Shown here: one piece after another, positions 4,643-43,055 of the stretch | Numbering within the stretch: position 1 is the first letter of the stretch | How the letters are laid out: the number at the start of each line of letters is the position of its first letter | Source of the DNA: Halocafeteria seosinensis | Lineage: Eukaryota | NCBI GenBank assembly: GCA_001687465.1 | Contig: LVLI01000206.1 | Span: 62,001 to 105,055 of the forward strand | Length of the DNA: 43,055 bases | Reading direction: 5' to 3' | Made by a program: the position numbers and the translations under genes | Notes under the pieces: generated by a model | Told to the model about the DNA's origin: nothing | What the model saw: the letters and a program-made list of their open reading frames with translations, nothing else | Databases searched by the model: none

Positions 4643-5908
4643 ATGATGTCGGCAGTCGAAGAACTTCTACGCTTGTACCTCATGTGGAATTCTGAAGTGT
4701 ATCGTTTTCCGCGACAGACCTTTCTTCCACAAACAGTAGTGTACTGGGAAACAGTGGCTGGCGTGACTTCTGGCTCCGAGGTGTCGTGGGTGGCGTGTTT
4801 ACCGTGGAGCACATGCACTCTTGTCGGCCATAGCGACGAGAATACGAGGAAAGACCTGCAGGTTCGGTATCCATTCTTCCGGGGGCATGGGAATATGAGA
4901 ACGATAGTCTTTACGGATACCATTTCGTGCTTCTCAAGGTTAACCTCATTGGACATCCAGTCCCTAGAGTGCATCAATCCTATCTCGGATCAAGATTTCT
5001 ACCACCTGTCAAACCTGCGTTGCCTTTTCATGAGCTGGGTTCCGAGCGAGAAAATTACGGATGGAGCGTTTGAGCACCTATCCAATTTGACAAAACTAGA
5101 TATGGATGGATGCAGGCAAACAACGATTTCAGATAGCGCTTTCAAACATTTGTCGGGGCTGGTCAATCTAAACATTCGGTATGATACTCAAACAACGCTC
5201 ACGAACGAAGCGTTTAAGCACCTACAGAAACTAACGTTTCTTGATATGAAGCAATGCCGTCAAAGTACGATAGGCAGTGACGCATTTAGTCACTTATCTA
5301 AGTTGGAAGGGTTAAATATATCAGGGTGTGATCAGACAACGCTCACGAGTCGTGCTTTCCAACACTTAGGGAATTTGACCTCGCTGGGTATGGCATCCTG
5401 CTTAGACTTAGTAGAACCCGACAGCACATTTCATTCGCTGCCGAAATTGTTGAGTCTCGATCTGAAGAGTATCAGGATCGTACAGCGAGTCAATGATGCC
5501 TTTGCAGGATTGTCAAAGCTGACGATGCTTGATTTGAGGTATGGCAGAACGTCAGGCCTATCGGATCGCGCCTTTCAACATTTGGCAACCTTAAAATGCC
5601 TTCTTATGAATGAGTGCAAGCAACCCTCAATTACTGACGAAGCATTTCGACATTTGTCGAACCTAACATACCTATCAATGGGAAGATGTGATCAACCAAC
5701 AATTACCAACGGCGCATTCCGGCACTTGGTAAACTTACGCAGATTGAATATGCAGATGTGCAATCAAGAAACGATAACGGGTGCAGCGTTTGCACCTTTG
5801 CTTAACTTAACATGGCTTTGCATTCAAGGATGCACTCAAAGCTCCATAGTGAATGAGTCGTTTCAACATTTGCCGTACCTCAAGCAGTCAAACATTTTGC
5901 GTTCGTAA
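4643..5908 (+). CDS. Intronless leucine-rich repeat protein, ~13 repeats of 24 aa
   Basis: Repeats of the type ITDGAFEHLSNLTKLDMDGCRQTT run across the C-terminal ~300 aa. The true start is uncertain. Confidence 0.85.
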   Translation: MMSAVEELLRLYLMWNSEVYRFPRQTFLPQTVVYWETVAGVTSGSEVSWVACLPWSTCTLVGHSDENTRKDLQVRYPFFRGHGNMRTIVFTDTISCFSRLTSLDIQSLECINPISDQDFYHLSNLRCLFMSWVPSEKITDGAFEHLSNLTKLDMDGCRQTTISDSAFKHLSGLVNLNIRYDTQTTLTNEAFKHLQKLTFLDMKQCRQSTIGSDAFSHLSKLEGLNISGCDQTTLTSRAFQHLGNLTSLGMASCLDLVEPDSTFHSLPKLLSLDLKSIRIVQRVNDAFAGLSKLTMLDLRYGRTSGLSDRAFQHLATLKCLLMNECKQPSITDEAFRHLSNLTYLSMGRCDQPTITNGAFRHLVNLRRLNMQMCNQETITGAAFAPLLNLTWLCIQGCTQSSIVNESFQHLPYLKQSNILRS

Positions 5909-11172: not shown

Positions 11173-14100
11173 ATGGCCGAGGCATGCGGAGGCTCCTCGT
11201 CGCACAAGCCTTCTAAGCTATACAGGACGGATAGTCCCCAGGAGATGACCACCAGGCAGCGGACGAATAGCGTAATGGAGCAGGAGCAACAGCCGCATCG
11301 TTTTAGCGACGAGGAAAGGGAGCTCTTGGGTAAACTACACACTGCTTGGATGCGACTGCAACACATTGACAACGAAAAGGTGGGATCAGAGCTGAGCAAG
11401 AGCCGACAAAGTCAGTATGACGGAAAATCTGTGCCACGTTCATTTGATGACACTTTACTGGTTCGGGACGCCGAGTACTCGACGCCGTCAAGGAAGTCCC
11501 GCCATCGGAACTCAGCAAAGCGCGTTGCTCCCGGTGATAGTTACAGGTCCACCTCATTCGATTGTTGGGTGCGAGATGGAGAAACTAGCTTTGATATTGA
11601 TCTAGATAACGACACGGAAGAACAATCGAAATCCAGGGCAGAGTCAAAAGATACTCTCGAGTCGTCGTTTGAGTTCCAAGAGTTTTTGAGTAAGATGGAA
11701 ACAGCGAAGTATGCATTGAGCGAAGACTGCTTTGACGCCGTTGACGTGCGTCGATTACCTTTTACTGCGTGGCAAATAGTGGCAGTTTGTATTTTGGAGG
11801 GGTGGGCACCGATAGATTCTTGCTCAGCAGTTTTACAATCGTATGTCTCTGGAGATCCCCTTGTTCGTTTCGATGATTGGAGTTGGTGTGCAATGTTGCG
11901 CTCCATGGACGACTTGGGTGTTCTGTTGCTCCCTGATCTTTCGTTACATCTACATCGCCATATGTCGTCTCCGTCCGAGTTATTCTTGAAAAACCTTGAT
12001 ACTTTTCTTGTCGACGTTGTTGGGCCGTTTGTCGTGCGACATATTGTTGGGAGGGCGCTCTGTAATCAGTCTCTTCAAGCACTAGTTTGGAATTGGATGG
12101 GAGTATTGAGCTGGAAACAGCAGGAGTTGCTTGATTCGTCAACAGAAACTGCGTTCCACATGACGCTTAGATTGAGCCAAGAGCACACTGTGGGGTACGC
12201 GACTCGTTTCCTGTTGAACAGTATGTCCGATAGAACCGTTACCTCGTCGAGGAGCCCGAAAATAACCCCGCAAAACAGGATAGATGAACAAGTAGGAGAA
12301 AATGTTACCGAGGCTCAATTTATGAATGTTTTCCTGACGCTGCCGAAAGTGTACTTGCCTATTCGGAAGGCGATGTGGGACTCAGATAAAAAGCGGTTTT
12401 TGTATTCCATTAATGATGTTAATCGCACCCGAATCCAGCGACGATTGAACCAAATGGATAAACAGGACGGTATTTCTTATTCTACGAAGCACAACGACAC
12501 AGCGGCGTATCTAGAAACTTTATTACGTGTACACTACTTTCTCCGTCGTTGTACTGGAAGAAGGAAAACAGAAACAGATCAATTGCTTCATTTTGGAGCC
12601 TATGATTGGGTGGGATTTGACATGGACCATACGTTGATAGACTATAAGACAGATGCTACAAGTGCGGTCATATGGGAAGCATCACTCACACATCTCGTTC
12701 AGACAACTAGTAGAGATTGTCGAGCTGGTCGCGAAAAGCACGCATCGCTAAACACTGTTCTAAACTATTTGGTGCAAGAGTATCCTGGTCTTGAAAGCTT
12801 GGCCGCACCCCCGCATGGTGAGTCGCCTTCTACCTTCGACACTCCGCCTTCAATTTTCCAATTCACCGGAAGGCAGTATCCGCCCTGCTGGTTGGAGCTG
12901 GCAAAGCCAGGATATATCGTCGACGCCCTAGAGGGAAACATTATTGTTGTGGATGCGTGTTACTATGTTAGACGAGTTTTCCATGGCGGTAGGATAACCA
13001 ACGGTGAAGAAGCGATGAGGCAATACGTACACCACACTCACAAGCAACCAAAGGAGGCCGATTGTTTCCTGTGTTTCCTTGACTCCCTTAAACAAAGGTG
13101 CTGTGATAGACCGTCTCCAGACAGCGCTACTGGTCGGTATGCTCCCATCTTATCCTATTTTGACGCTCCAGTACTACCCCTATACGCGCTGCTGGTTTCT
13201 GCGTGTGATGATTTCGTTCGGCTGCAAAATGGTACCTTTCAGAGCGGTGTATTTACTCAGTTATGGGTGGCTGCCCAGAAGTCGACTCGCTTTTCATATA
13301 GTAGATTTAGTGTTAACGGATGGTCCAGTATTTTACAAAATCCGTCGAAATTTCTTCGGTTGGAGAAATGTAGACATACAAAGAGATGGATCCGGGGATT
13401 AAGACGAGGTGGATCTGGAGTGAAAGCTAGCCGATGTTTTCTGCTGACAAACTCGGATTGGAAACAAACGAATACTCTAATGTCGTTTGCATTCGGTGCT
13501 GATTGGCTGTCACTATTCGACTTGGTCATAGTAAACGCAAAGAAGTCAAAATTCCGTCGAAGTCTTGCTGCACACACTAACGATGATGGCAATCAGCTTG
13601 GTCGTGTGAAGCAAGATTCAGAGAAGGGATCAAATGTTTCATCTCACTCTGCGGAGAAGCAGAAAGGTTTCTCTCTGCTGAATCCTGAAACCGGGAAAGT
13701 CCAGGCGCTGGATGATAGTTGGCTCCAGCACGAAAGCAAGCAGCAGCAACTTGTGGAAGAGTTAGCGACGCGATGGGGCGCCTTACCTGTGAACTTACAG
13801 GCCTTGGGATCTGGAGTTGGTTCAGCGTTTGGGACTACCGCTGTATTAAGCGGAGGTGGCATTCGTCAGTTTCTAGCTACAATCGAGCATGTTACTCGCT
13901 CCGAACTCCCGACTGGAACTCGAATGGAGGCCAAGTTCTCTGTGCTATATATTGGTGACCATGTATATAATGACATCGTTGCCCCGGAGATTGAGGGGGT
14001 GACGTGGCATACCGTTGCAATCAGTCCGGAAATGAGTCTCACTACATTGCCGTGTAAAGCACTCGAAAAGATCGACCCGTCAGATGCATTTTCGCACCAA

Positions 14101-14772
14101 TGGGTTCCTGTGAGGACGAGTTTCGGGAAATTAAAGAGCGAACACCCACATGATATACTCCCCGTTTCCATAAATGGAGCTTTTACAGCATCTAACTGGG
14201 AAAGTAGGCAAACTCCCACAGACATATCCTGCAGCGAGTTCTGGCTCGATCGATTATCTTTAGACAGTTCGGTCCTTCGTGTACCGTCGGTTTGTTGGCT
14301 GATGGAGATTTTGAGGACTCGGAAAAGCTATTCCAGTATTGCCTTATTGGTTGGTAGGTCGCTTTTATCGACCAACACCCACGGCGTGTATAGTAGTCAG
14401 TTTCGTGCCTGCATCGATGAGGGCGACCTTGTAGCTACTGTTATCCGGCTGCAGCGTTTGGATGAAGCCGAAAGTGTGCAGAAGGAAAACTTTTTCTCGC
14501 GACTCCTGGAATATCTGGGTTCTTCTTCGAGCAAGAAACTGTTAAATCCCTTCTTTACACTCAATCGTGACAATGATGGAACAAGCAAAGCGTCTAAAAT
14601 GAAGCATTCGCTGGCGTTGATTCCTGGCAGGTCTACATCAGTGTCTTACAATTCAGTGGCTACATTAAAAATGGTGGCGCACGCTGAAGCCAAGAAGCAG
14701 GAGTTCTCCAATGAAATCGAGAATGCGAGTCCGGTTCGACAATCGAATCGTGAGTACTCGAAAGTCATTTAA
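11173..14772 (+). CDS. Large intronless HAD-superfamily 5'-nucleotidase (cN-II/NT5DC family) with a long N-terminal extension
   Basis: Motif I YDWVGFDMDHTLIDY, motif II FLLTNSDW, FDLVIVNAKK, and motif IV VLYIGDHVYNDI, within a 1199-aa ORF. Confidence 0.85.
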   Translation: MAEACGGSSSHKPSKLYRTDSPQEMTTRQRTNSVMEQEQQPHRFSDEERELLGKLHTAWMRLQHIDNEKVGSELSKSRQSQYDGKSVPRSFDDTLLVRDAEYSTPSRKSRHRNSAKRVAPGDSYRSTSFDCWVRDGETSFDIDLDNDTEEQSKSRAESKDTLESSFEFQEFLSKMETAKYALSEDCFDAVDVRRLPFTAWQIVAVCILEGWAPIDSCSAVLQSYVSGDPLVRFDDWSWCAMLRSMDDLGVLLLPDLSLHLHRHMSSPSELFLKNLDTFLVDVVGPFVVRHIVGRALCNQSLQALVWNWMGVLSWKQQELLDSSTETAFHMTLRLSQEHTVGYATRFLLNSMSDRTVTSSRSPKITPQNRIDEQVGENVTEAQFMNVFLTLPKVYLPIRKAMWDSDKKRFLYSINDVNRTRIQRRLNQMDKQDGISYSTKHNDTAAYLETLLRVHYFLRRCTGRRKTETDQLLHFGAYDWVGFDMDHTLIDYKTDATSAVIWEASLTHLVQTTSRDCRAGREKHASLNTVLNYLVQEYPGLESLAAPPHGESPSTFDTPPSIFQFTGRQYPPCWLELAKPGYIVDALEGNIIVVDACYYVRRVFHGGRITNGEEAMRQYVHHTHKQPKEADCFLCFLDSLKQRCCDRPSPDSATGRYAPILSYFDAPVLPLYALLVSACDDFVRLQNGTFQSGVFTQLWVAAQKSTRFSYSRFSVNGWSSILQNPSKFLRLEKCRHTKRWIRGLRRGGSGVKASRCFLLTNSDWKQTNTLMSFAFGADWLSLFDLVIVNAKKSKFRRSLAAHTNDDGNQLGRVKQDSEKGSNVSSHSAEKQKGFSLLNPETGKVQALDDSWLQHESKQQQLVEELATRWGALPVNLQALGSGVGSAFGTTAVLSGGGIRQFLATIEHVTRSELPTGTRMEAKFSVLYIGDHVYNDIVAPEIEGVTWHTVAISPEMSLTTLPCKALEKIDPSDAFSHQWVPVRTSFGKLKSEHPHDILPVSINGAFTASNWESRQTPTDISCSEFWLDRLSLDSSVLRVPSVCWLMEILRTRKSYSSIALLVGRSLLSTNTHGVYSSQFRACIDEGDLVATVIRLQRLDEAESVQKENFFSRLLEYLGSSSSKKLLNPFFTLNRDNDGTSKASKMKHSLALIPGRSTSVSYNSVATLKMVAHAEAKKQEFSNEIENASPVRQSNREYSKVI

Positions 14773-20468: not shown

Positions 20469-22936
20469 ATGGCTTCTTCATCGACGAATGTTCATCATGT
20501 GGAGACAGTTGTGCCAGAGGACAACGCTACGGCACAGAAAATGGCAGCTTCGTCCCCGGAAGCAGCTTCTGAACACACCGTTCAAGAGCATAATAGGGTG
20601 GCAACAGAAGCGCAGCAGGGGGACGACGATGCATCTACGACTAAATCAGGAGGCGATTCTGTGCTCTACCGTCTCTGCATCTCCAATATGGGTAATTTTG
20701 TGAAAGCAACGTCGTTCAGCAACTTTTTGACCAAGGAAAAAGTACCTCATTTTGGGGTTCAGAAAGTGGTAAAAAGTGTGGCTGGTTTCTTGTTATTCGA
20801 AACAGAAGAACAGATGAAAGAAGCAGAGTCGAAACTGGGACAAAAACAGACAAAGTACAAGGGCAAGCCACTTCGCGTCAGAAATGCCAATCCGCTCAAG
20901 GGATCCAAACCTCGTAAGCTACTCAATTTTGCCCAACAGCCCCATGGAGATAAGCGAATTGAACGAGCAGGAGATGATGGAACCGACCTGGAGATTGCTA
21001 CGGAAGGAAGCTCAATGCACGATCTATTGTCTTCGTGGTATCGCTGGGAATATCCCACCCAACTATCAAAGAAGCACGATATGATCCGCGAATTGATGGA
21101 AACGCTATATGCGCGTACCAAAGAAGCGGTACGTGTGTCACTGCCTACGTGTAAGGACTTCACTCGTTGTTTTACTAGTCTGGCTATGCCTCCAGACAAT
21201 AAACGCATTCATCAATCCAAGTACTTCCAAGAAAAGAGGAAGAAACTCCCAAGCAGTCCCTACTCCAGATGCTGATGTCGAGGCAAAGATGGAGAAAACG
21301 TGGATAGCCACGGAAACAGCAGGTATGTCTTCAATGCAAGGATCACGGGATTTTGTACTCGTCATTTGTAGTCCCTCTGCAGACACGTTCAAGGAGAAAC
21401 TCCGTAATATCCAAGGCTCCCCCGAGATTATTTACTATCGAAATAAGGCAAAATTTACAATAGGAAAGAATAGTGAAGACGAAATTTCAGTAGGGTTTCT
21501 AACGAAACCATTTCGGGATGGCAGACGAGTTGAGAACCCGATCGGTTGCCTCAATGTCTCCCGTGCCTCAGCATCTATTGCGCACAGGTTAGAGTCGTTC
21601 TTTAAAAGCTCTGCTTTCGAGCCGTACGATTGCCTCACACATACTGGAGTCTGGAGGGCTGTAACAGTGCGTGAAGGTTGCAAAACGGGGGAAATCATGA
21701 TAATTGTAGAAGCAACTCCTCCCGGCTCTGCTGTAGGTGACCACCAAGCTGCCGCAGCTCTTGGCAACGAACTCCCTGTTTGGACACGTGGCGTCAAGGT
21801 AGACGAAACTGCAGTGCACTCTGCTATATCAGTAGATAGCGAATTTGCAATTTTATCGAATATGGAAAGAGACGCAAGTCAGAAACGCACCTCAGATAAA
21901 CATCCTGCCCCAGTTTCGAACCTGGAGGAGCTGAAGCGACAACAGTCCTTGTACGAACAGGAGCTACAGCAGCTTGATGAGTTGTTATCTCAAGACTTTG
22001 AAGTTACCAAACATCCTCCGTTGCCTTCTGACTGCCCTACTAGCACTGTCACATCGATATCAGAGAAGGTCCCTGCTACTGTAAAGATTCATTCGGCTTT
22101 CTTACAAGAATACTCTGCAATTTCTGGTCCTGGTAAGTTCTGGTTTAACACTCTTTGTATGGTCCCTGCTAAGAATAGTTGTGGCTCCTTGGTGTTCTAC
22201 AGACGAAAATACTCCCTTCAAGCATTTACGGGGACAAATGCATTTTACTGAAGAAGTCAATGGTCTCCGCTTTGCCATTAGCCCTGGTGCCTTCTTCCAG
22301 ACGAATACTACCGCGACGGAAGTACTGTACGAACAGGTCGCCAATTACGTTAAATCAGATAGCCTTGATACTATCATGGATGTTTGCTGTGGCACGGGGT
22401 CGATTGGTTTGTGCGTGTCCAAGTTAATCGGTCGGAATGATTTAAGAATTGTTGGTGTTGAATTGTCTGCTTCTGCGGTGGATAACGCGCGTTACAACGC
22501 TGAAATCAACAATATGTCTGAAGATAACGTCATATTTAAGGATGCCAAAGCAGAAGACGTGATGCCCGAGATAATCAAGCATGCTATTGATACTCACGAG
22601 ACTCCAGACAGCAAGGAGACAAAGGAAAATGGATTCTTAAGTAACCAGCAGGTAGTTGCAATATTGGATCCTCCTCGTGCAGGCGTTCATAAAAATGTAA
22701 TCCAGACTCTGCGAGCTTGTCATGGTCTCAACCGTATCGTTTACGTGTCATGCAATCCTACGGGCTCGTTTGTCAGAGACTGTGCCCTTCTTTGCAGCCC
22801 CCATGGAGGGCCTCGCAGCAAGGTCAAGGGAGCGCCCTTTAGGTTGACAAGTGCTACTCCAGTGGACTTATTTCCACAGACATCGCACATCGAAATGGTT
22901 GCTTTATTCGAGCGACACTTAGATGACATATCGTAA
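20469..22936 (+). CDS. TRMT2A: tRNA (uracil-54 C5)-methyltransferase with N-terminal RRM-like domain, multi-exon
   Basis: YRNKAKFTIG, AFFQTN, DVCCGTG, LDPPRAG, YVSCNP (catalytic Cys) and VDLFPQTSHIE. An alternative upstream in-frame ATG lies at 20343. Confidence 0.9.
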
Positions 22937-23066
22937 CTTTCAACAAGCTGAAATGGTATAATTCGAATCCGGGTCACCCGTTTTGACTAACTGAGGGTAC
23001 TTTAAACAACGACGTTGTCAGTGGCTCCAGGCAATATTCTGGGGATAGAATTACAGTGCGTACAGG

Positions 23067-25821
23067 CTAGGAGGGATCTTGAGACTGTATGTCGAGTAAC
23101 GTCTTTTGGGAGTAGAATCTATTTATCGTCTTCCTTTCCACTTCCCGGTGTACTTCTTCCCAAGAGGTCCATGTGGATTTGCTACCATCGACGTCCAAGT
23201 CCGCTTCAAAGTAGAATAATCCATGACATGGAGTAAATGATATTCTTACGTTAGACGTACCGCCTTCCAAAAACCTGTACGTTAACGTTATCGCTCCAGC
23301 AACGGAGCTACTCAATCGGTAAAAAAAATTACCTGGGGGAAATTCTTCCTCCTTAGTGTTGCAACCATATATCAACGGACGATGACCTGCTTGCCACCAC
23401 TCCGAGACACCGAACTTTATTAACCATAGCACTGGCATAAGAACCTCCACACAATACATGTATAACTTGAAAGTACCCTCCGGTGTTAGGTAGGGCTTTG
23501 TCCAAACTTTATCTACAAGGCTTTGACGCATATCCTCCAATCTCGGCTGTGTTAGCTCCTGAACGTAGTCAGACGCAAACTCGATGATTGCCGAGGTAAT
23601 CGAGTCTTCCTCCCAAGGTATCGGCTGATCTCGGTTATATCCAGTTAGTAAAGCCGCATGCGAAATTCTCTCCACTGCGTTGCTCGCCTCCAGGTATACC
23701 TCTTCTGCATTTTAAGAGCCAAAAATTCAATTGAGTAGTTCGAGTGGAACCAATTTCGCAAACGTACCATCACATAAGTTAGTGTCGTTTTTAGCATGCC
23801 AGCGGATTTCTTCGTTATTGAAATCGTACCCACACTTGGCAAGGCGTTCGCAACAACGAACCGCATTGGCCGGGCGCCCATGCAAACAAGAGGGAAGATC
23901 GGACTCCTCAAGCCGACGCACTATCTGCACAAGGACAAAGGGTTCAATAATTTCACCAACACAAGAAAACAATACCGACATTTTACAGTACTTCGTTTTG
24001 ATTTTCCCCTATGACCCTTGAAAGACGCTGTTTCAAGATAAGGGTGATCGCTTGTTCATCCAACTCCTTAATGGGTGGGAAAAACTGCGGGAAGCCAACG
24101 GAATCTGAGGCGCAGTTTTTACAGCCGTCGAATTAATTTGGTTACTAACCTCGATGCCTGTGTTACTGACATCATAAGCTGAATAATCGGCCACTGATAC
24201 CGTTACTATAGCATGTAGTATCGCGAAGCGCCGACATAACCGGGGAATATCGTTGATAGTATCCGCAATGCGTGGGTTGTACCTCCACTGGGTGCAAGCA
24301 GTATAAATATGCACCAGAAGCTGTAGTGGCTAGGAAACGCAAGCAGGTGTAATTCGTTGCATTCAAGGGATCGGAATCGAGAAGACACGAACCAGGGAGT
24401 TAGTTGTGGTCTTTTTTTGCAGCATTCCATCCATTTCCGCCCCCTGTAAGGGATATTACAGCAGTGTAACACCATAGCATCCAAGGACAGCTCAATAATC
24501 CCACTCACTGGTTCGACCGTTAGAGTTATGACGTTAGGGAAAGGGGTAAGTTGGTTCCGACTGTCGCTTCTTGCCAATATGAACCCAGTGACAGACCTTG
24601 CAATGGTAGACTTCCCCAGGCCTCGTCTTCCCCACAATACGAGTACCCCGGGACCTCGCCCAGCAATACCTTTCTGGGCTTTTCTACATATCTTCTGGTA
24701 TACACTCTGAATGCAACCATGACGACCAAGGATCCATTTGTGAGGTTGTTCATCCCACTCCAGCGGTTGTACTGAATTTTTCCAATTTGGGGACGACTCC
24801 GAGGCTTTCTTGGCAGGAAACGCTTGTAGATGCTGTTGTTCTGCTCAGCAAGTTAAATAAGGACGTTCAATTACATTTGGAAATCACGAGAATCAAGTGT
24901 GCAACCTGTACTTACTTATTTTATCCTTCGATTCCGGGACAAGGCGAAAAGGTTGTTCAGCATCAGCTGGAGTGCTCTTCTGGTGCGCCGTCGCTACGTC
25001 CACTCCTTTCTGCGCATAACAAAAACAAAGAGCCCAACAGAAAGTAAATCACCTCGAAATTGAAGAGCTTGGGTTTCGAACAATAACCCTTACCAGTAGA
25101 TTCTCATACAGCTTGGCCACATAAGCATTCGTTCGTTGCTGCGATAACCAAAATATTGTTTAGGACAACAATCTAGGTCACCGGTTAGCCCAGGGAACGT
25201 ACCCCTCCATCACCTCGATCATTCTCCTTGGGAACCGTGAGAACTATTTTTGCTGCGTCGTGTTTCCAATGATAGGAACGTCGGGCTTGGGTATCCAGTA
25301 GAGATACTTGACTTACCACCTGCTTGCATCAAAACTTTGGCTGCTATATCTGTTCCATACCCTGAAACAATGATGATCGAAGGTGGTGAATGAGTTTTTA
25401 AAATCCTTTCGATTTCATTCGCCGTCACCGTCTCCTCACATCCTAGGTCTCTGTCATGATCTTCCAGTGCAATTCCATACGTGTCACCAGCTGGTAACTG
25501 TCGTCCTCGCCCCACGTAGTGCAGAATGTCGATCCCATGGTCCAGGACCTTGTCAAATGTCTCACGGGTTGCGATAGCATCGTACCACGTGATGGCATAC
25601 ATGGACACTTGTTCGATTATGTAAGAGCGCTCTCTGGCGACATCGACCCGAGTTTGTCGGTGATCCAACTGCTCGTCGTCCGGACTGTACAGGGGATCCG
25701 CGTAGATATACGCGATATTGAGTCGACGTGGCGGGTGTTTGACTACCTGAGGGCCTTTGGGAGGATGGTTTGACTTCTTCCTGTGGCCCTTCTTCTTCCC
25801 TTTACTAGCACCAGCACCCAT
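23067..25821 (-). CDS. Paralog A: pseudo-CHAT (inactive caspase-like) + STAND/NB-ARC-like NTPase + STAT-like linker-SH2, predicted N-myristoylated, ~711 aa
   Basis: Manual GT-AG model with exons 25821-25317, 25252-25203, 25138-25094, 25009-24916, 24840-24509, 24443-24393, 24320-24150, 24084-23992, 23924-23768 and 23704-23067, giving one open frame of 2136 nt. Motifs: MGAGASK, AYIYADPL, DILHYVGRG, IIVSGYGT, ILGR...VLWGRRGLGKST, LHGRP, WWQAG..LIYG..GNFFYRLSSSVAGAITLTY. Confidence 0.8.
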
Positions 25822-26100
25822 TATACAGCACCGAGTTTGTGCCGCGTCGAGATGGCAGTCGAAGACGGAGGAACCTACACTATAATGCACCTCTACAGAA
25901 TCTTGCTGGTACCGGTAGCACCACACAATGTGTCCATTCACCCTAACAAGTCCGCGGATGACGTCGTACGTATATGCAATGGAGCAATTGCGGTCCGAGC
26001 TTCACAAACAAGGCTATATTACGCTAGTCTGCAGACTGCAACCAATTTACACAAGTTGTGTGTGGTACAACAACTTTTGTGTACGGTAGTAGCAGTGCTC

Positions 26101-26300
26101 CTACCGGAAGGCGAGTAGGCTACAGGTTACGCTACGCCGTGTGTGGGGTGAACTCTACCCAAAACCGCTCCAACATCTGTCATCAGCTTGCGATGCTGTA
26201 GTTCCTCCCCGCCTCCCGCTGGGGAACTCCCTGCTGGGAACCCCTGGACTCCCTTGTTCCCCAGAGGAGAGCCTGGTGGTTTCCTAAAGCAGAGAACGCA
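26101..26300 (-). repeat. Inverted, rearranged relative of the retroelement 3' end at 27160-27305 (SINE-like non-autonomous candidate)
   Basis: Shares blocks TGGGGAACAAGGGAG, TCGCAAGCTGATGAC, AGATGTTGGAGCGGTT and ACGGCGTAGCGTA(A/G)CCTGTAGCCT in the same order with the + strand element. Contains extra GC-rich stems such as CTGGGGAAC/GTTCCCCAG. Confidence 0.7.
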
Positions 26301-26899
26301 GTTAGACTTCATAATTGCCAATCTGCTGAATATCCAATGAGAAAGCACACAACAAAATACATGTATTGAAACGGCAGTCCAGACCATGAACTTCGAGTGA
26401 CCTCTTCCGTCACCAGTCACAGCAGAGGGATATCATAGAGGGATTTAGTCCTTCGGAAGTAATATATGCTGTTATCAATAATATCACTATACCTGTGATA
26501 TTTCACTGGTATTGGTAACTGCGAACTTCGTAACCCCGTTGAAGCCCGCGGTGATAATTGTCCGGAAATATCTACCGCCTGGGCCCTGGAGTTACCCCTG
26601 GGGGGAAACTTTTGAAATTCGGTTTTGTCTGGTCTTGTGACACGTACGAAATCAACATGTATAGAAGCTAAGAGGAACACCCACTTGGTCTATGCTGCGA
26701 CAACATGTGCGGCTGTTTCGCCCTAGACTCGATGCTCAAGCAGGACGGCACTACTGCGTCATCCTGATCCCTGAAAATTCCGTTGGCTCTTTTTTCCTGG
26801 GGAAGTCTTTCGGTCTTACGTAGATCTCCCTGGAGCCAGTTGCATGTACGCAGGAGCTGCACAATAAGCGCCGTTTGCCGCTTTGGGTTGTAATGCTGG

Positions 26900-27330
26900 A
26901 GGTTACACGACAAGGATCAGCTCGCGCTTTTGAACTGGAGTGGAGCGGAGCGTTTGGAGGGTACTATTTCATATCAAGCTTGTACAGTAGTGGCAACTGC
27001 ACGTGCCGATTTACTCTTGCAGCTGCTATTGGTCCCCACACCATCCTCCGGAAGCGCTCCCCACATGAAAATTATCCCGTTCGTGATAGAGGCGACGGGC
27101 GGTTTCGGGGAAGACGCGATCAAGTCCCTCAAGAGAATTGCCAAGAAAGCACCGCCTTTGTTGGGGAACAAGGGAGATGCGGAACTTTCGCAAGCTGATG
27201 ACGGCCAAACTGCCTATCATGTTGATGCACCACAACGTGAAGATGTTGGAGCGGTTACCCGTTATACGGCGTAGCGTAGCCTGTAGCCTGTTTGTCTTCC
27301 GGTTGTCACTTTGTCAAAGCACGCCGGGTC
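26900..27330 (+). mobile_element. Decayed 3' end of a non-LTR retrotransposon with a restriction-like endonuclease (CRE/R2-type)
   Basis: IIPFVIEATGGFGEDAIKSLKRIAKK, then after a frameshift near 27175 RNFRKLMTAKLPIMLMHHNVKML. This matches the C-terminal RLE pattern PfvvEtxGxxg...xxxlsxxlxrxNaxxl. No intact RT is seen and the 5' boundary is unclear. Confidence 0.7.
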
Positions 27331-28020
27331 ACTGAAGTCCACCTGCACGGTTGCAAATGCAACAAGAGGAGTCAGTGTGTTTGAAAGATAACACAATTTC
27401 AAAAGTGTTCATTGATATTTGAGTTGTCGATGCTCGATTACACAAACGTTACATAAACAAACGTGTGTCTGAGGCAGTGGGTCAGAATTGTCGACTCATC
27501 AACAGAACGGGAGAGCACATAATCGATGCATCCCATTAGCCCAAGTTAGTACTAACGACAGAATACTTTCATGGCGGAAGTATTTGGTTGTACACATATC
27601 TCGTGCATATAGACGCTATTTCCAAATAGTCCGCCAGCTGCATGTTACATTTTGCATCCCTTCGCCGGTCGACCTCACGGAGGAATTCGGCAGGATCGAT
27701 GGATCGTCCAGTCAGACGAGGAAAAACGTAATGGAAAAGCTTGCCAAAAAACTGAAAGACAAAGGTTTGGGAGACACTCTGGCGGATTCGTTGGCATCAT
27801 GTGCAGTTTAGACGGAACCTGACGGAGGCATCCATTTTAGGCCGGGTCGGGGCCAGTTTTAGTTGGCTCACCCAGCCAGGTCAGAATCGACTTCCCTCTC
27901 TCTTACCCATACTTGCCTGAAAGCCGGGGATCCACACAGTTAAATAATGTTCCTGTGTTAACACTGAGAGCAGAGAGTATGCACAGCCTGACGGTCAACA
28001 TAGCAATTCCATTTTGATAG

Positions 28021-28151
28021 AACCCACAAAGGAAGTGTCTCCTGCAGGAAACTGACGACAAATCAGTGAACCAATTAACGGAAAAGCGTTGACTAAGAGA
28101 CGTTTAAATTGTGTTAAATTATTAAATTTATTAAAATTCGCGGGCATTATA
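28021..28151 (+). repeat. Dispersed repeat, copy 1 (inverted copy at 41451-41560)
   Basis: 28047-28103 matches the reverse complement of 41480-41536 at 47/57 nt without gaps. Both copies then share AAATTTATTAAAA(A)TTCGCGGG. Confidence 0.75.
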
Positions 28152-29316
28152 GCGTCTTGTACGTCACCAACTTACAACATCATTGGTTAGAAGACGTCGA
28201 ATGACGTCTCCAGCTGCGTTCAATTTTGCTTTGGCCTCTTTTGTCACAGTATCTTGCCGTATTTCATGTTGGCCGATGTATCTGGACGGCTTAAAACTAA
28301 GACCAACAAGTTGTTGTGTTGATACACCTTTCCCAAAGCATCCACAACCGGACTTCCATCCCCATTACCATCAGGGAATTGGGGACGCATCACAATCAGC
28401 CTACGTGAGGCTCATTTATTACAAGGCCGCATATAACAAGGCGTGTCTGTAGCATCAGTAAAGGCGTCCGCACTATAATGACAGACTCTGCCAAGAAAAT
28501 AATCAGTAAGTAATGTGCTGTTGTCGTTTACAACAGTAAACATGTGAGAACTGTATTGAACCTAGTGGGAGTCGGAAGTCGAATTATTGGCTCAATCAAT
28601 GGCTCTTCTACAACACCAATCGATTCGTGGACGCAGAAGGTGTCTCTGCTGGATGCTTGAAAGTGACAGCTAGCATACAACCAGTGTGTGCTGGATAGTG
28701 CTGGTGCGAATCGGATTCAGCATCCTCACGTTGCACCAATGATGGCCACCGTCAGTCTCCGCAGTTTTTTCATCTTGTTTCATCTCCCAAATTCGCCAAA
28801 AAGAACCCTGTGCGTTCCTGGTTATCCCGTTCAGGAGGTGGATTGCGTCTCAAAACGAGCCACGCCCCTATTTCGTTCGTTTCGTTTTATCTGACTCCGT
28901 CCGTTTTGCGGGTGTACAGGCACCTCTCTCTGGCATCTGACCCGTAAGAACGCACTCACCACTTCCACGACTGCCTTTTGGTTCCTGCATATCATTTTGG
29001 CGGCATAAGCTTTGCGATAAGTTGACGGTGGATACGGGCCGATAGCAACAAAGGCGCGTTGTGAGCGAAAACGACTATCCTATAGACTGCTTGCCCCCTC
29101 CAACCTAGCGGCACCGGTAAAACAACCGATCCTCCAGAAGTCGTAAACAGGCTGGGTATGTTGCCGTGAATTCAGTAAAGGGTCCCTAGGTGTGTACCAC
29201 GGCGTCATATATCCGCTATCTGACATACAATGCACGATCCTAGCCGTGGAAGAACGTTTGCCTACAGTGTAAACTCTACTAAGGTGAACGAAGCGTAGCC
29301 CTTCCCGTCGACGCGA

Positions 29317-31982
29317 TTATCTTACCGTAGGATGGAAGACAATATCGCTTTCCCCCAAAGTGCGCGAGATATGCTCGTGAATGTCTTCCCATACCCGGAA
29401 CGGCGTGTTATCAATGTAGAACCTAAACTCAAAATTTTCTCGCTTTTGAATGATCCTCATATTCTCAATGCTCCAAGTGCCCGGGTCTTTCCAGGAGACC
29501 GTAACCCCTCGTGGATCACTGCCGCTCAGCCGATACAAAAATTCACCCTTCCCCAAAATCTCCCCTGGCCTACAGGCCCTGCCATGGATGAAAGGAACCG
29601 CTTCGTCTACGTCCCACCAGTCCTTTATTCCATAGGTCAACAGCCACAAGCATGGCATCAGAATGTGCCCACAGTATGAATATATGTTTAGTATCCCGTC
29701 AGTCACATAGTTAGACAGTTGCGTCGTCAATCCTTCTAAACCATCTAAACGATTTTGTCTCAGGTGCTGCAAGTACAGCTTGATAAACTCTAAGACAGCC
29801 GTTTCAGCCAGCTGAGGCTCCCATGTTGCCTTATACACATCACCATGAAACTGTTCTTGACGTTCTCTCGAGAGGTAATTCGCAATGTATCGGGAAGCTT
29901 CCGTTCGCTGATGAAGAATCTCATCTGTATTTAGCAGGGGTTACTACTTGGAATTGCAAGTAGCACTATACGAATACCATTCGTCGCACCTTCGCAATCC
30001 TCTCGTCTCCAAGCAACCTCCGTTGCAGACAGCCGGTCGGCTTCACCCGAGTGGCACAACTCCTTAGCAATATCGGTAATTACCCTAGCGTTTCCTAACA
30101 TTCCTTTGAACGCTTCATGCTGCTGCAACTGTTGCAGCAACTGCACAAGCAAACGTATCGCACGGGATGAGTAATATTCCAGTTCAATCCAGTACGCAGC
30201 AAAAGTACGTACATGCTCGTGTTGGGGACCCAAGCACTGGGCTAAGAGCTGCGTGGATGCGTCCTCGTTCAAGGGTTCCACCCGCACACACTGTGACGAG
30301 AAATAAATCAATTACGATTGGAATATTAAGCGTTATCTACTCCCTACGAACCTTAGCTTCACTGCAATCGGAGGACTTGATATAGGCAGATACACAAAGT
30401 ACCGCAGTACAATGAAATGACTTCGATAAGACTTGCAAACATTCGCTATAGAGGTTGACCAAATCACTAGTAAAACAAAGTTTGGTCGTTTCTAGATGCA
30501 CTTTGATAGTAAACTGCACCAAAGAGACTGCGTGTACACTTCCATAACTACGATGGGAGTCTGGGAGCGATTCCACTCACTAATGTATGGGGAGGCAAGG
30601 CCTCGTACGCGGGATCTGCACGGTTTCGTTTGCATGCAGCTGCAATTTTATCGGATAATGTATCTTCCTGTAAGGTTAAACGCGTACTGCTAATGCAAGT
30701 ATTTGAACTCCAGCTTTTATTGCTTACCTCATTCGCATTGATGCTGACAGAGAGAATATTTCGAAACCGATTGAGGGCATTGAACGCAGATCCATCTCTA
30801 GACCTTCTTAAGTTCACATAGCGATATAGGGAGTCGCATAGAGTGCGTTTTCCCAATCCACTTTGCCCATGTAGGACGATGCACCGTGAAGCGGACGCAT
30901 CGAAGCCATCATGACACACTGACTGATACAGTTCCTGTAGTAGCTTATCTCTGCCATATATAGATCGATGTGGTTGGTCAGGACATTCGTCGCAAATTCC
31001 ATCAAATTGGAGCCGTATTTTGTGATTACTACGGGATATGGATGTGTCCGCTGCATTTTTTTTTTGGTTGTCGTCGTAGATGCACGTTCTCGTTCTGCAC
31101 AGGAAAGATGATGCCATACTTACTGTCCTCAGGTTCACTACTAGGCGATAACAAAGTGAATGTGCTTTGGTGACGTGGGGAGCAAGCGATCCCTTGTGCT
31201 CGCTCAAACGCTTTACGGACTGTCTCTCCCCTCTGCAACCGTAATGACAACTTCAAGAGTATTTGATTTAGAGGTACCTGGACGGGATAACTGACGTACG
31301 AGTAGCCTTTCATAGAAGCATTTGGCGAAGGAAATCGCGGATATCTGCATTGTACCGTAGTATGTAAACGTGACTTTGCGTGCTTGAACTGGGTATGGGT
31401 AATGCATCTCACATCTTCCACCGACGAATCCTGCGGAACCGATACCACATACGGAACTGCAAGTAAGATAAGTGAATCTAACGACGATGGCAAGATCAAA
31501 ACAGAAGAGCACGTACTTCCTGCATCTGTGAATACTTGTGCGACAGCCTCACTGTGACATGCGCTCACGAGCACCAGTTTGGGGCGGTGGGTATCGTGCA
31601 GCAAGTTCCGCAGTTCCTCCGTATTGACTATTTTCTCCACACCTAATTGTTGCTGCTGCTTAACACTATCGTCCTCAACTACGCCCTGTTCGAACGAGAT
31701 ACCCTGAGGCGTGCCATGGCCTGAATAATGCAGGATGTCAATGCCTTTAGAGAGCAAGATCTTCATGTTCTCCAGGGTGGCGATGGCTTCCAGCCAACGC
31801 ACATCAATGGTCTCTGCGCGTTCTTTCCTTCGGACTGGTGCAAATGGGCCTACGGGAGGTGATATCTGCTGCAATTGTTGTCTAATCTTGCGCGATTCCA
31901 GGTGGAAATCAATGCGCTGGACGGGAGATCCATCTTCATGCAGAATGGGGTCCGCGTAGAGGTAGCCAATAGTAATCATCAT
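29317..31982 (-). CDS. Paralog B: CHAT caspase-like protease (His/Cys intact) + STAND/NB-ARC-like NTPase + STAT-like linker-SH2, ~694 aa
   Basis: Manual GT-AG model with exons 31982-31517, 31456-31413, 31344-31300, 31232-31124, 31050-30728, 30667-30581, 30513-30352, 30290-30213, 30140-29978 and 29924-29317, giving one open frame of 2085 nt. Motifs: GYLYADPI, DILHYSGHG, LVLVSACHS, AISFAKCFYERLLRGETVRKAFERA, IYGR...VLHGQSGLGKRT, VEPLNEDASTQLL, WWD...FIHG...GEFLYRLSGSDPRGVTVSW. Confidence 0.83.
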
Positions 31983-42046: not shown

Positions 42047-43055
42047 TTAACTGTTGTGACCGTAGGATGACACGGTTCTTGAAGGATGTTGTGCCTTCAA
42101 TACCCGGCATGCTTCTCTACCCCAGCGAGGCTGTACCTCTAATGGACGGCACGATTGACAGTCTCGGTAACCGACCCTACTGTACGTTCCTGGGGGACAA
42201 GGATCACACTGTGTTTTGCTGAGGTTCGGCACGTGACCAGCCTTGCAGAGGTGGCAAACTGGATCCGTAGAATTTACCACCGATCCTTGTGGACACGGGA
42301 AGCAATGATCGCCGGACTCGGCAGGAACTTTTCCCTCTGCGCAACGTGTACAATTAGTATCGGTTTCGTTTGCCACATAAAAAGGTGGGCAGGGTACGCA
42401 TGCATTCCGTGCGGGGTTTGGGACGGCGCCTGTTCCGCATTCCTGGCAACCCACAGTCCCATTCGAAACAGTGTAGGATGGGCACTCATTTATCTTCAGT
42501 TCGAAGGAACAGATATTGCTTACAGTTACTGATGTATAAGTTCTTGGGGCATTCCGAACCCAAATAGAGCCGCTTGCCCAACCCCATCCTTCAGATTGTT
42601 TATCATTCTCGCCCCAATGGAGTCGAAACATATCAGATGGTAGCACCTGGAAGATATCACCATTTCCCGCAAATGTATGAGTACCACCCCGTGACATCAA
42701 ACTTTGGAGTCTCCCGTAACTCGTTACCGGCCCCTCTTCCCGTGGCGAACCAAAGGCAAAATCGCCAAAGTCACTCTGTGTCCAGCGAGTGTAATACTGT
42801 CCCTTGAAGATCTCACTCAAATGAGCAGAATGCCTGATATTCGAGGTAGCACGAATATTAAAATTCTCAAGAAAGAACTCCGTATACCCAAAAGGGATAG
42901 GAATATCGTAGTGTGCAAAGTGATCTGAGTGCGGACCAGTACCATCAACCGTGTATGGTCTTATTCCTTCCCAGAATCCAAAGTTTGCGACGTCTCCGTA
43001 TGTTGAAAGAGTAGCATTTAGAAGTTGTTTAGCTATAAGCGGGGTGATCTCGGTG
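42047..43055 (-). CDS. Partial Cys-rich surface/secreted protein with GCC2_GCC3 (ephrin-receptor-like) CxxC repeats; 5' end outside the window
   Basis: The frame is open from the window edge (TEITPLIAKQLLNATL...). A G/W-rich domain is followed by repeats such as CQECGTG, CVPCPPF, CTRCAEG, CFPCPQG, CHLCKAG and CDPCPPGTYS, with several NxS/T sequons. The 3' exon structure is unresolved. Confidence 0.75.
   Translation of the reverse strand, partial: TEITPLIAKQLLNATLSTYGDVANFGFWEGIRPYTVDGTGPHSDHFAHYDIPIPFGYTEFFLENFNIRATSNIRHSAHLSEIFKGQYYTRWTQSDFGDFAFGSPREEGPVTSYGRLQSLMSRGGTHTFAGNGDIFQVLPSDMFRLHWGENDKQSEGWGWASGSIWVRNAPRTYTSVTVSNICSFELKINECPSYTVSNGTVGCQECGTGAVPNPARNACVPCPPFYVANETDTNCTRCAEGKVPAESGDHCFPCPQGSVVNSTDPVCHLCKAGHVPNLSKTQCDPCPPGTYSRVGYRDCQSCRPLEVQPRWGREACRVLKAQHPSRTVSSYGHNS

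Follow-up and report, generated by a model that had tools for sequence, protein, structure and literature searches.

A 43,055-nt stretch of the Halocafeteria seosinensis genome (GenBank assembly GCA_001687465.1, contig LVLI01000206.1, positions 62,001 to 105,055; hereafter the window) carries two neighboring genes on its minus strand, here called A and B, which sequence comparison identifies as old tandem paralogs. Each encodes an N-terminal CHAT domain, a degenerate STAND-type NTPase and a predicted STAT-type linker-SH2 module. B is likely a protease with its His/Cys dyad kept, while A is, judging from its substituted catalytic positions and intact gene structure, a retained and spliced pseudoprotease. 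We favor, tentatively and at somewhat short of an even chance, a reading in which A is a membrane-tethered pseudoprotease that would regulate the protease B after phosphotyrosine docking; the docking, co-assembly and control are the parts that we infer. A CHAT-STAND architecture with SH2 replacing the repeats, represented here by one paralog whose active site is intact and one pseudoprotease, seems to be undescribed in the searchable papers. The whole locus covers 23067-31982 on the minus strand; a sequence-only reading of the same DNA, which had proposed an active protease and a pseudoprotease at 24605-31730, clipped both genes. The exact gene models are as follows.

23067..25821, minus strand: gene A, 711 amino acids (P0003), with a putative N-terminal anchor, pseudo-CHAT, degenerate STAND NTPase and predicted STAT-type linker-SH2
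25821-25317, 25252-25203, 25138-25094, 25009-24916, 24840-24509, 24443-24393, 24320-24150, 24084-23992, 23924-23768 and 23704-23067, minus strand: exons of gene A
29317..31982, minus strand: gene B, 690 amino acids (P0002), with a CHAT domain of intact dyad, degenerate STAND NTPase and predicted STAT-type linker-SH2
31982-31517, 31456-31413, 31344-31300, 31232-31124, 31050-30728, 30667-30581, 30513-30352, 30290-30213, 30140-29990 and 29924-29317, minus strand: exons of gene B

The products of both genes are identical to EukProt proteins derived from transcripts GECG01016498 (A) and GECG01013124 (B). Nine GT..AG introns interrupt each gene; they are 60-84 nt long, their phases are 1,0,0,1,0,0,0,0,1 in both genes, and eight of the nine intron positions agree within two alignment columns. 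Spliced joints were seen in contigs of runs X2-X4 (at least 15 among the matches listed, eight in A and seven in B) but not in those of X1; all four runs derive from one study. The two proteins share 28% identity, and their four-fold sites are near saturation, with differences at 52 of 72; the duplication is therefore old. Measured against 200 shuffles, their similarity reached z scores of 35 (CHAT), 19 (NTPase) and 35 (C-terminal part), with identities of 30% for CHAT, 33% for the linker and 31% for SH2. A tblastn search of the window for further family members matched A and B alone.

X2-X4 contigs bearing A extend into the tRNA methyltransferase gene, which is convergent to A and has its stop codon only ~130 nt from that of A (window 22900-23066). 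On the 3' side of B, X2-X4 contigs reach 0.75-1.2 kb past the stop codon (window 28139-29316), which suggests a long 3' untranslated region. A second EukProt transcript of B, P0001, keeps intron 4 (window 31123-31029, minus strand) and encodes a 324-amino-acid product with the CHAT domain present and NTPase and SH2 absent. This transcript is not exactly mappable to the window, apparently owing to a one-base difference in an A run, and may be either a message that escaped splicing or a shorter isoform of B.

The protease asymmetry lies in four codons.

31716..31718, minus strand: catalytic His89 of B (CAT), aligned to the His of the solved CHAT structure 8tl0
31557..31559, minus strand: catalytic Cys142 of B (TGT), aligned to the Cys of 8tl0
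25507..25509, minus strand: Arg105 of A (CGA), replacing the catalytic His by alignment with B
25357..25359, minus strand: Tyr155 of A (TAT), replacing the catalytic Cys by alignment with B

All residues named in the sequence-only reading (these four, both Walker A motifs and the HGRP/GNA pair) were recovered where it had placed them, and its view that B has an intact dyad holds: both motifs are canonical and B passes the Pfam CHAT threshold (39.7 bits against a cut-off of 24). The best solved-structure sequence match of the domain, 8tl0, is modest (E 6.4e-5). Alignment columns pair His89 with Arg105 and Cys142 with Tyr155. A Pfam search returned no CHAT match for A, and the domain aligns over its full length to that of B at the identity and z score given above; on these grounds we consider it a pseudo-CHAT devoid of the His/Cys dyad. 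Scored against the CHAT domain of P0004, an outgroup protein with an intact dyad, B reached z 32.4 and A z 10.7, with A still aligned end to end, the pattern expected if catalytic constraint were lost and the fold kept.

The 711-codon frame of A, called intact in the sequence-only reading, maps exactly to the 711-amino-acid protein but is continuous only after nine introns are spliced out. The accompanying claim that A is not a decaying pseudogene is borne out by the identical transcript-derived protein and by a frame and 18 splice dinucleotides that are whole despite silent-site saturation; under a simple substitution-only model, their survival through 0.1 neutral changes per site would have a probability of ~1e-6. 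Both coding variants found in A across the runs are synonymous (2/2; weak evidence), and the last exon has a homolog at 68% identity. On this evidence A is a retained gene whose product is a pseudoprotease.

The C-terminal modules and a putative lipid anchor on A, both overlooked in the sequence-only reading, change the mechanism. Each module is encoded by a last exon.

23067..23704, minus strand: last exon of A, predicted STAT-type helical linker and SH2 (AlphaFold2, Foldseek, VIA-align), with the betaB5 Arg629 at 23318-23316
29317..29924, minus strand: last exon of B, predicted linker and SH2 (Pfam SH2 E 0.029; invariant Arg/Ser columns), with the betaB5 Arg620 at 29532-29530

At the sequence level, hints of SH2 are weak, with the Pfam E value of 0.029 for B and, for the alignment, a best value of 0.0025 and two of six members matched. 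Seven of eight Protein Data Bank sequence matches of the last exon are SH2-bearing, every one at E >0.6. An AlphaFold2 model of the module, built from a six-row alignment, reached a mean predicted local distance difference test (pLDDT) score of 74.5; its alphaA region, where the alphaA2 Arg/Lys of SH2 domains would lie, is weak (residues 100-116, pLDDT <50). Foldseek searches with this model listed SH2-bearing proteins in 43 of 44 rows, none at E<=0.001, and the alignments covered 157-179 columns for STAT rows and 66-97 for other SH2 rows. VIA-align listed 49 SH2-bearing rows out of 50, judged by titles, with a top Z of 8.8 (STAP-1 SH2) and six chains at Z>=8, values barely over the tool's caution line of 8. 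Its alignment to Dictyostelium STAT (1uus; Z 8.7, root-mean-square deviation 4.2) covers 170 residues and spans model residues 1-203. Since sequence motif, Foldseek and VIA-align agree, both proteins are predicted to end in a STAT-type linker-SH2 module.

The betaB5 Arg and the betaB7 Ser are invariant in all six aligned rows, and PMC6895964 describes these two residues as the signature of phosphotyrosine binding. The SH2 modules of A and B are predicted to bind phosphotyrosine. The last Tyr of A (697) lies within the part aligned to STAT SH2 domains, and the last 30 residues of B contain no Tyr; with no Tyr-bearing tail beyond the SH2-aligned part, STAT-like reciprocal dimerization is unlikely. 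Pfam found no repeat families in A or B, the C terminus modeling as SH2 instead. An Atlas search with the last 212 residues of A gave no match at >=0.8, and NCBIfam and PADLOC searches gave weak matches only.

The putative anchor precedes the pseudo-CHAT domain.

25717..25821, minus strand: residues 1-35 of A, with a Met-Gly start, Ser6/Lys7, 11 Lys/Arg and no acidic residue (sequence counts)

This segment includes a 31-residue extension with no counterpart in B, where in-frame stop codons lie directly upstream of the start. By the usual motif rules, it matches an N-myristoylation signal followed by a polybasic patch and is likely a membrane anchor of that kind. It would constitute a second, independent asymmetry between A and B and fits a scaffold role for A.

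Between the CHAT and C-terminal modules lies the STAND-type region, where the sequence-only reading had placed the other half of a complementary loss of function.

24605..24631, minus strand: Walker A of A, canonical GRRGLGKST (residues 302-310; sequence and alignment)
30842..30868, minus strand: Walker A of B, GQSGLGKRT, with Arg290 at the Ser/Thr position (sequence and alignment)
23871..23882, minus strand: GxP-type motif of A, HGRP (residues 462-465; sequence)

NTPase alignment columns pair Lys289 of B with Lys308 of A, and Arg290 with Ser309. A fits the Walker A consensus GxxGxGK[ST] and B departs from it; the Gly-Arg motif that precedes Walker A is present in both. The GxP motif is found in A and in the relatives P0007 and P0010 and is absent from B, which reads GNA, without Pro, at position 454 where A has HGRP at 462. 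As the sequence-only reading had noted, neither protein has a canonical Walker B: a motif scan of the Walker B region found three to four consecutive hydrophobic residues ending in Asp in neither A nor B, whereas P0004 has such a run at residues 656-660, the register of this comparison being uncertain. Scored against P0004, the NTPase region of A reaches z 6.5 and that of B z 5.6, much the same value. Pfam AAA_16 matches B at E 2.4e-5 and A at E 0.044, and NB-ARC matches A at E 0.38. Only ~75-85 residues separate the NTPase strands from the linker-SH2 exon, the stretch in which the helical and winged-helix domains of a STAND protein would lie. An alignment-free AlphaFold2 model of full-length B reached a pLDDT of just 36.6, too low to be of use.

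The proposed complementarity is thus half retained. The protease asymmetry stands; the NTPase half is weak, with the Walker B Asp gone in both proteins, similar scores against P0004 and AAA_16 favoring B. The protease residues are lost from A alone, and the NTPase loss is largely common to A and B. The likeliest course of events, as read from these motifs, is that both proteins lost ATP hydrolysis, possibly ahead of the duplication, and that nucleotide binding is the most that A may have kept.

Relatives elsewhere were sought with the last exon of B among 1.84 billion representatives, giving six matches: B itself, P0005, P0006, P0007, P0008 and P0009. P0008 and P0009, long repetitive proteins, were dropped as unrelated after inspection; P0010 falls in the same cluster as P0007. 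P0006 is 68% identical to A (last exon) and P0007 42%, and P0005 is 36% identical to B. A five-row tree set A, P0006 and P0007 apart from B and P0005 (support 98/97), and by this split the A-type and B-type lineages both appear to be old and present elsewhere. An exact look-up of ten window open reading frames (ORFs) matched one, from the EukProt source only, which is a hint, short of proof, that P0005-P0007 come from other organisms. A profile search, scored over the best 7994 candidates, returned B and P0004, the closest full-length relative found. P0004, from an ENA contig, has 1229 amino acids; its CHAT dyad and both Walker motifs are intact, and it gave no SH2 match. In the Atlas, B scores highest with clusters of bacterial CHAT+AAA_16 proteins ~660 amino acids long (0.94 and 0.93).

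Among known systems, the NLR-like CHAT-STAND proteins that occur in bacteria, fungi and protists (PF12770 with AAA_16, NB-ARC or NACHT) share with A and B an N-terminal CHAT domain followed by a STAND-type P-loop. A and B differ in having SH2 as the presumed sensor instead of TPR, WD40, ANK or LRR repeats, in the loss of Walker B from both and in one paralog, A, being a pseudoprotease. PMC12881547 reports fungal NLRs with CHAT and repeat sensors and gives C-terminal superstructure-forming repeats as the criterion for tripartite NLRs, a class outside which A and B fall for want of such repeats. STAT proteins (Dictyostelium STAT 1uus, STAT5, STAT6) likewise combine a helical linker with SH2, but A and B have neither the coiled coil, the DNA-binding domain nor the Tyr tail, and their N-terminal parts are CHAT and P-loop. 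The match to SAVED-CHAT (8tl0) is restricted to the CHAT part; that protein senses through SAVED and has no STAND or SH2. Eroded STAND partners are documented for bacterial systems as inactive STAND modules (iSTAND) in PMC8195603, which places SH2 on TRADD-N proteins. A CHAT-STAND-SH2 architecture was not found in the literature searched, most subscription papers being outside its reach, and a term search of bioRxiv 10.64898/2026.09.21.753143 found no SH2 or CHAT.

Paired plant NLRs are neighboring STAND paralogs with unequal motifs, arranged head to head and with the sensor domain in one partner. A and B are likewise neighboring STAND paralogs with unequal motifs but form a same-strand tandem, carry SH2 in both members and lack LRRs, so that the paired-NLR analogy drawn earlier fits poorly. 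The other analogy drawn there, to caspase-8 and cFLIP-L, fits better: as with A and B, an active caspase-fold protease is accompanied by a catalytically inactive paralog. In cFLIP, Arg and Tyr stand at the dyad positions, and its gene lies next to caspase-8. The differences are that A and B have CHAT rather than a classical caspase domain, that they lack death-effector domains, and that their recruitment would use SH2 and the STAND core, in a partnership that is itself conjectural. PMC13233873 describes the caspase-8/cFLIP heterodimer and terms cFLIP a pseudo-protease. A and B would work like this pair by inference only and, on the features compared, are not members of the NLR, STAT or paired-NLR groups.

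In the favored reading, A would be held at the membrane through myristoylation and its basic patch, and tyrosine phosphorylation of a receptor or adaptor would create docking sites for the SH2 domains of A and B. The STAND-derived cores would then drive co-assembly of A with B, probably without ATP hydrolysis because both lack the Asp of Walker B; nucleotide binding by A may persist. The dead CHAT domain of A would set the threshold or the place of B activity, as cFLIP-L does for caspase-8. Taken in its full form, as a phosphotyrosine-triggered membrane platform in which a myristoylated pseudo-CHAT-STAND-SH2 protein co-assembles with and gates its active paralog with no ATP hydrolysis, the proposal is doubtful, and we put it forward as rather unlikely in all its parts together. 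Were it true, cFLIP/caspase-8 logic would have arisen independently of animals, with STAT-type SH2 wiring to tyrosine kinases replacing NLR repeats. NLR-like proteins sense via repeats; with SH2 standing there instead, tyrosine phosphorylation would be linked directly to a caspase-type protease. Immune signaling and SH2 function are both little studied in the host lineage, and a natural active/dead pair would offer a two-gene system in which to test regulation by pseudoproteases outside animals.

Several observations weigh against regulation of B by A. The genes lie on the same strand, ~3.5 kb apart with a repeat element interposed, and no X2-X4 contig joining them was found among the pieces listed. 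The His-to-Arg and Cys-to-Tyr changes are each one transition from the intact codon, so the cFLIP-like substitutions require no common mechanism. The asymmetry of the NTPase regions relative to P0004 is slight. The tree is unrooted and has three long branches, and P0005-P0007 and P0010 are C-terminal fragments without catalytic sites or genomic context. Scans for homologous loci yielded 60 pattern matches in metagenomes with the A query and 56 with the C-terminal alignment, and with the latter 47 on viral contigs and 14 in prokaryote genomes, none of them confirmed; no second genome with A and B linked was found in these four scans. A CHAT-CHAT complex prediction (B 1-225 and A 30-235, without alignments) scored 0.00 with unfolded controls and is evidence neither way.

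The main alternative is that A and B are independent members of a larger CHAT-STAND-SH2 family, with B alone a phosphotyrosine-gated protease, A an anchored SH2 adaptor with other partners, and the two neighbors through tandem duplication only. We give this a substantial, though clearly less than even, chance because adjacency is the default outcome of tandem duplication, a repeat separates the same-strand genes and the substitutions are single transitions. The 28% identity and saturated silent sites would suit such independence, and more than two family lineages may exist, given the low identities of P0007 to A (42%) and of P0005 to B (36%). Yet linkage has persisted through silent-site saturation, and the CHAT fold of A is whole, at an identity to B (30%) like those of the linker and SH2 (33% and 31%), which suggests that the dead domain still makes contacts.

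It is improbable that neither protein is an active enzyme, the B dyad being a relic or serving self-cutting only and both proteins acting as SH2-bearing scaffolds. Such an account would suit the degenerate NTPase sites of both, the modest match to the solved CHAT structure and a scan of 20 window ORFs in which no gene for a substrate or pore-former was evident, but both catalytic residues of B sit in canonical motifs, B exceeds the Pfam CHAT cut-off and by z score its CHAT domain is three times nearer the outgroup than that of A. Very improbable is the strict form of the earlier proposal, in which A functions as a nucleotide switch and turns on an NTPase-dead B in trans, in the style of sensor/helper NLRs. 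The canonical Walker A with its Ser and the GxP motif, present in A and not in B, are what survives of that claim; the Walker B Asp is missing in A, the A NTPase is no nearer the outgroup than that of B, and its Pfam matches (NB-ARC E 0.38, AAA_16 E 0.044) are poor. That A is a transcribed, decaying pseudogene, as loss of both catalytic residues and of a Pfam CHAT match might suggest, is largely refuted by the whole frame and 18 splice dinucleotides (the ~1e-6 estimate) and the 68%-identical last-exon homolog.

The element between the genes is part of neither.

26096..27303, unstranded: high-copy repeat element with imperfect inverted ends (inverted arms, many look-alike contigs and loose ends)

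Its inverted arms lie at 26103-26156/27250-27303 and 26163-26178/27241-27256, and it is likely a mobile-element remnant. A short plus-strand frame at ~26894-27271 has no Pfam match and resembles the C-terminal end of restriction-like-endonuclease retrotransposon proteins.

The window as a whole is eukaryotic in character, with short GT..AG introns and ~47-48% GC, a content in line with the 46.8% given in bioRxiv 10.64898/2026.06.25.734631. The tRNA methyltransferase gene lies just downstream of A and Spb1 just upstream of B, and other housekeeping genes encode an S28 peptidase, a JmjC protein and a DnaJ protein. At 11173-14772 (plus strand), a single-exon gene encodes a 1199-amino-acid protein with a 5' nucleotidase domain at residues 579-955 only, the remainder being without a Pfam match. 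An LRR protein is encoded at 4643-5908 (plus strand) and a cysteine-rich repeat protein (ELAPOR1/NCD3G-like) at 42047-43054 (minus strand).

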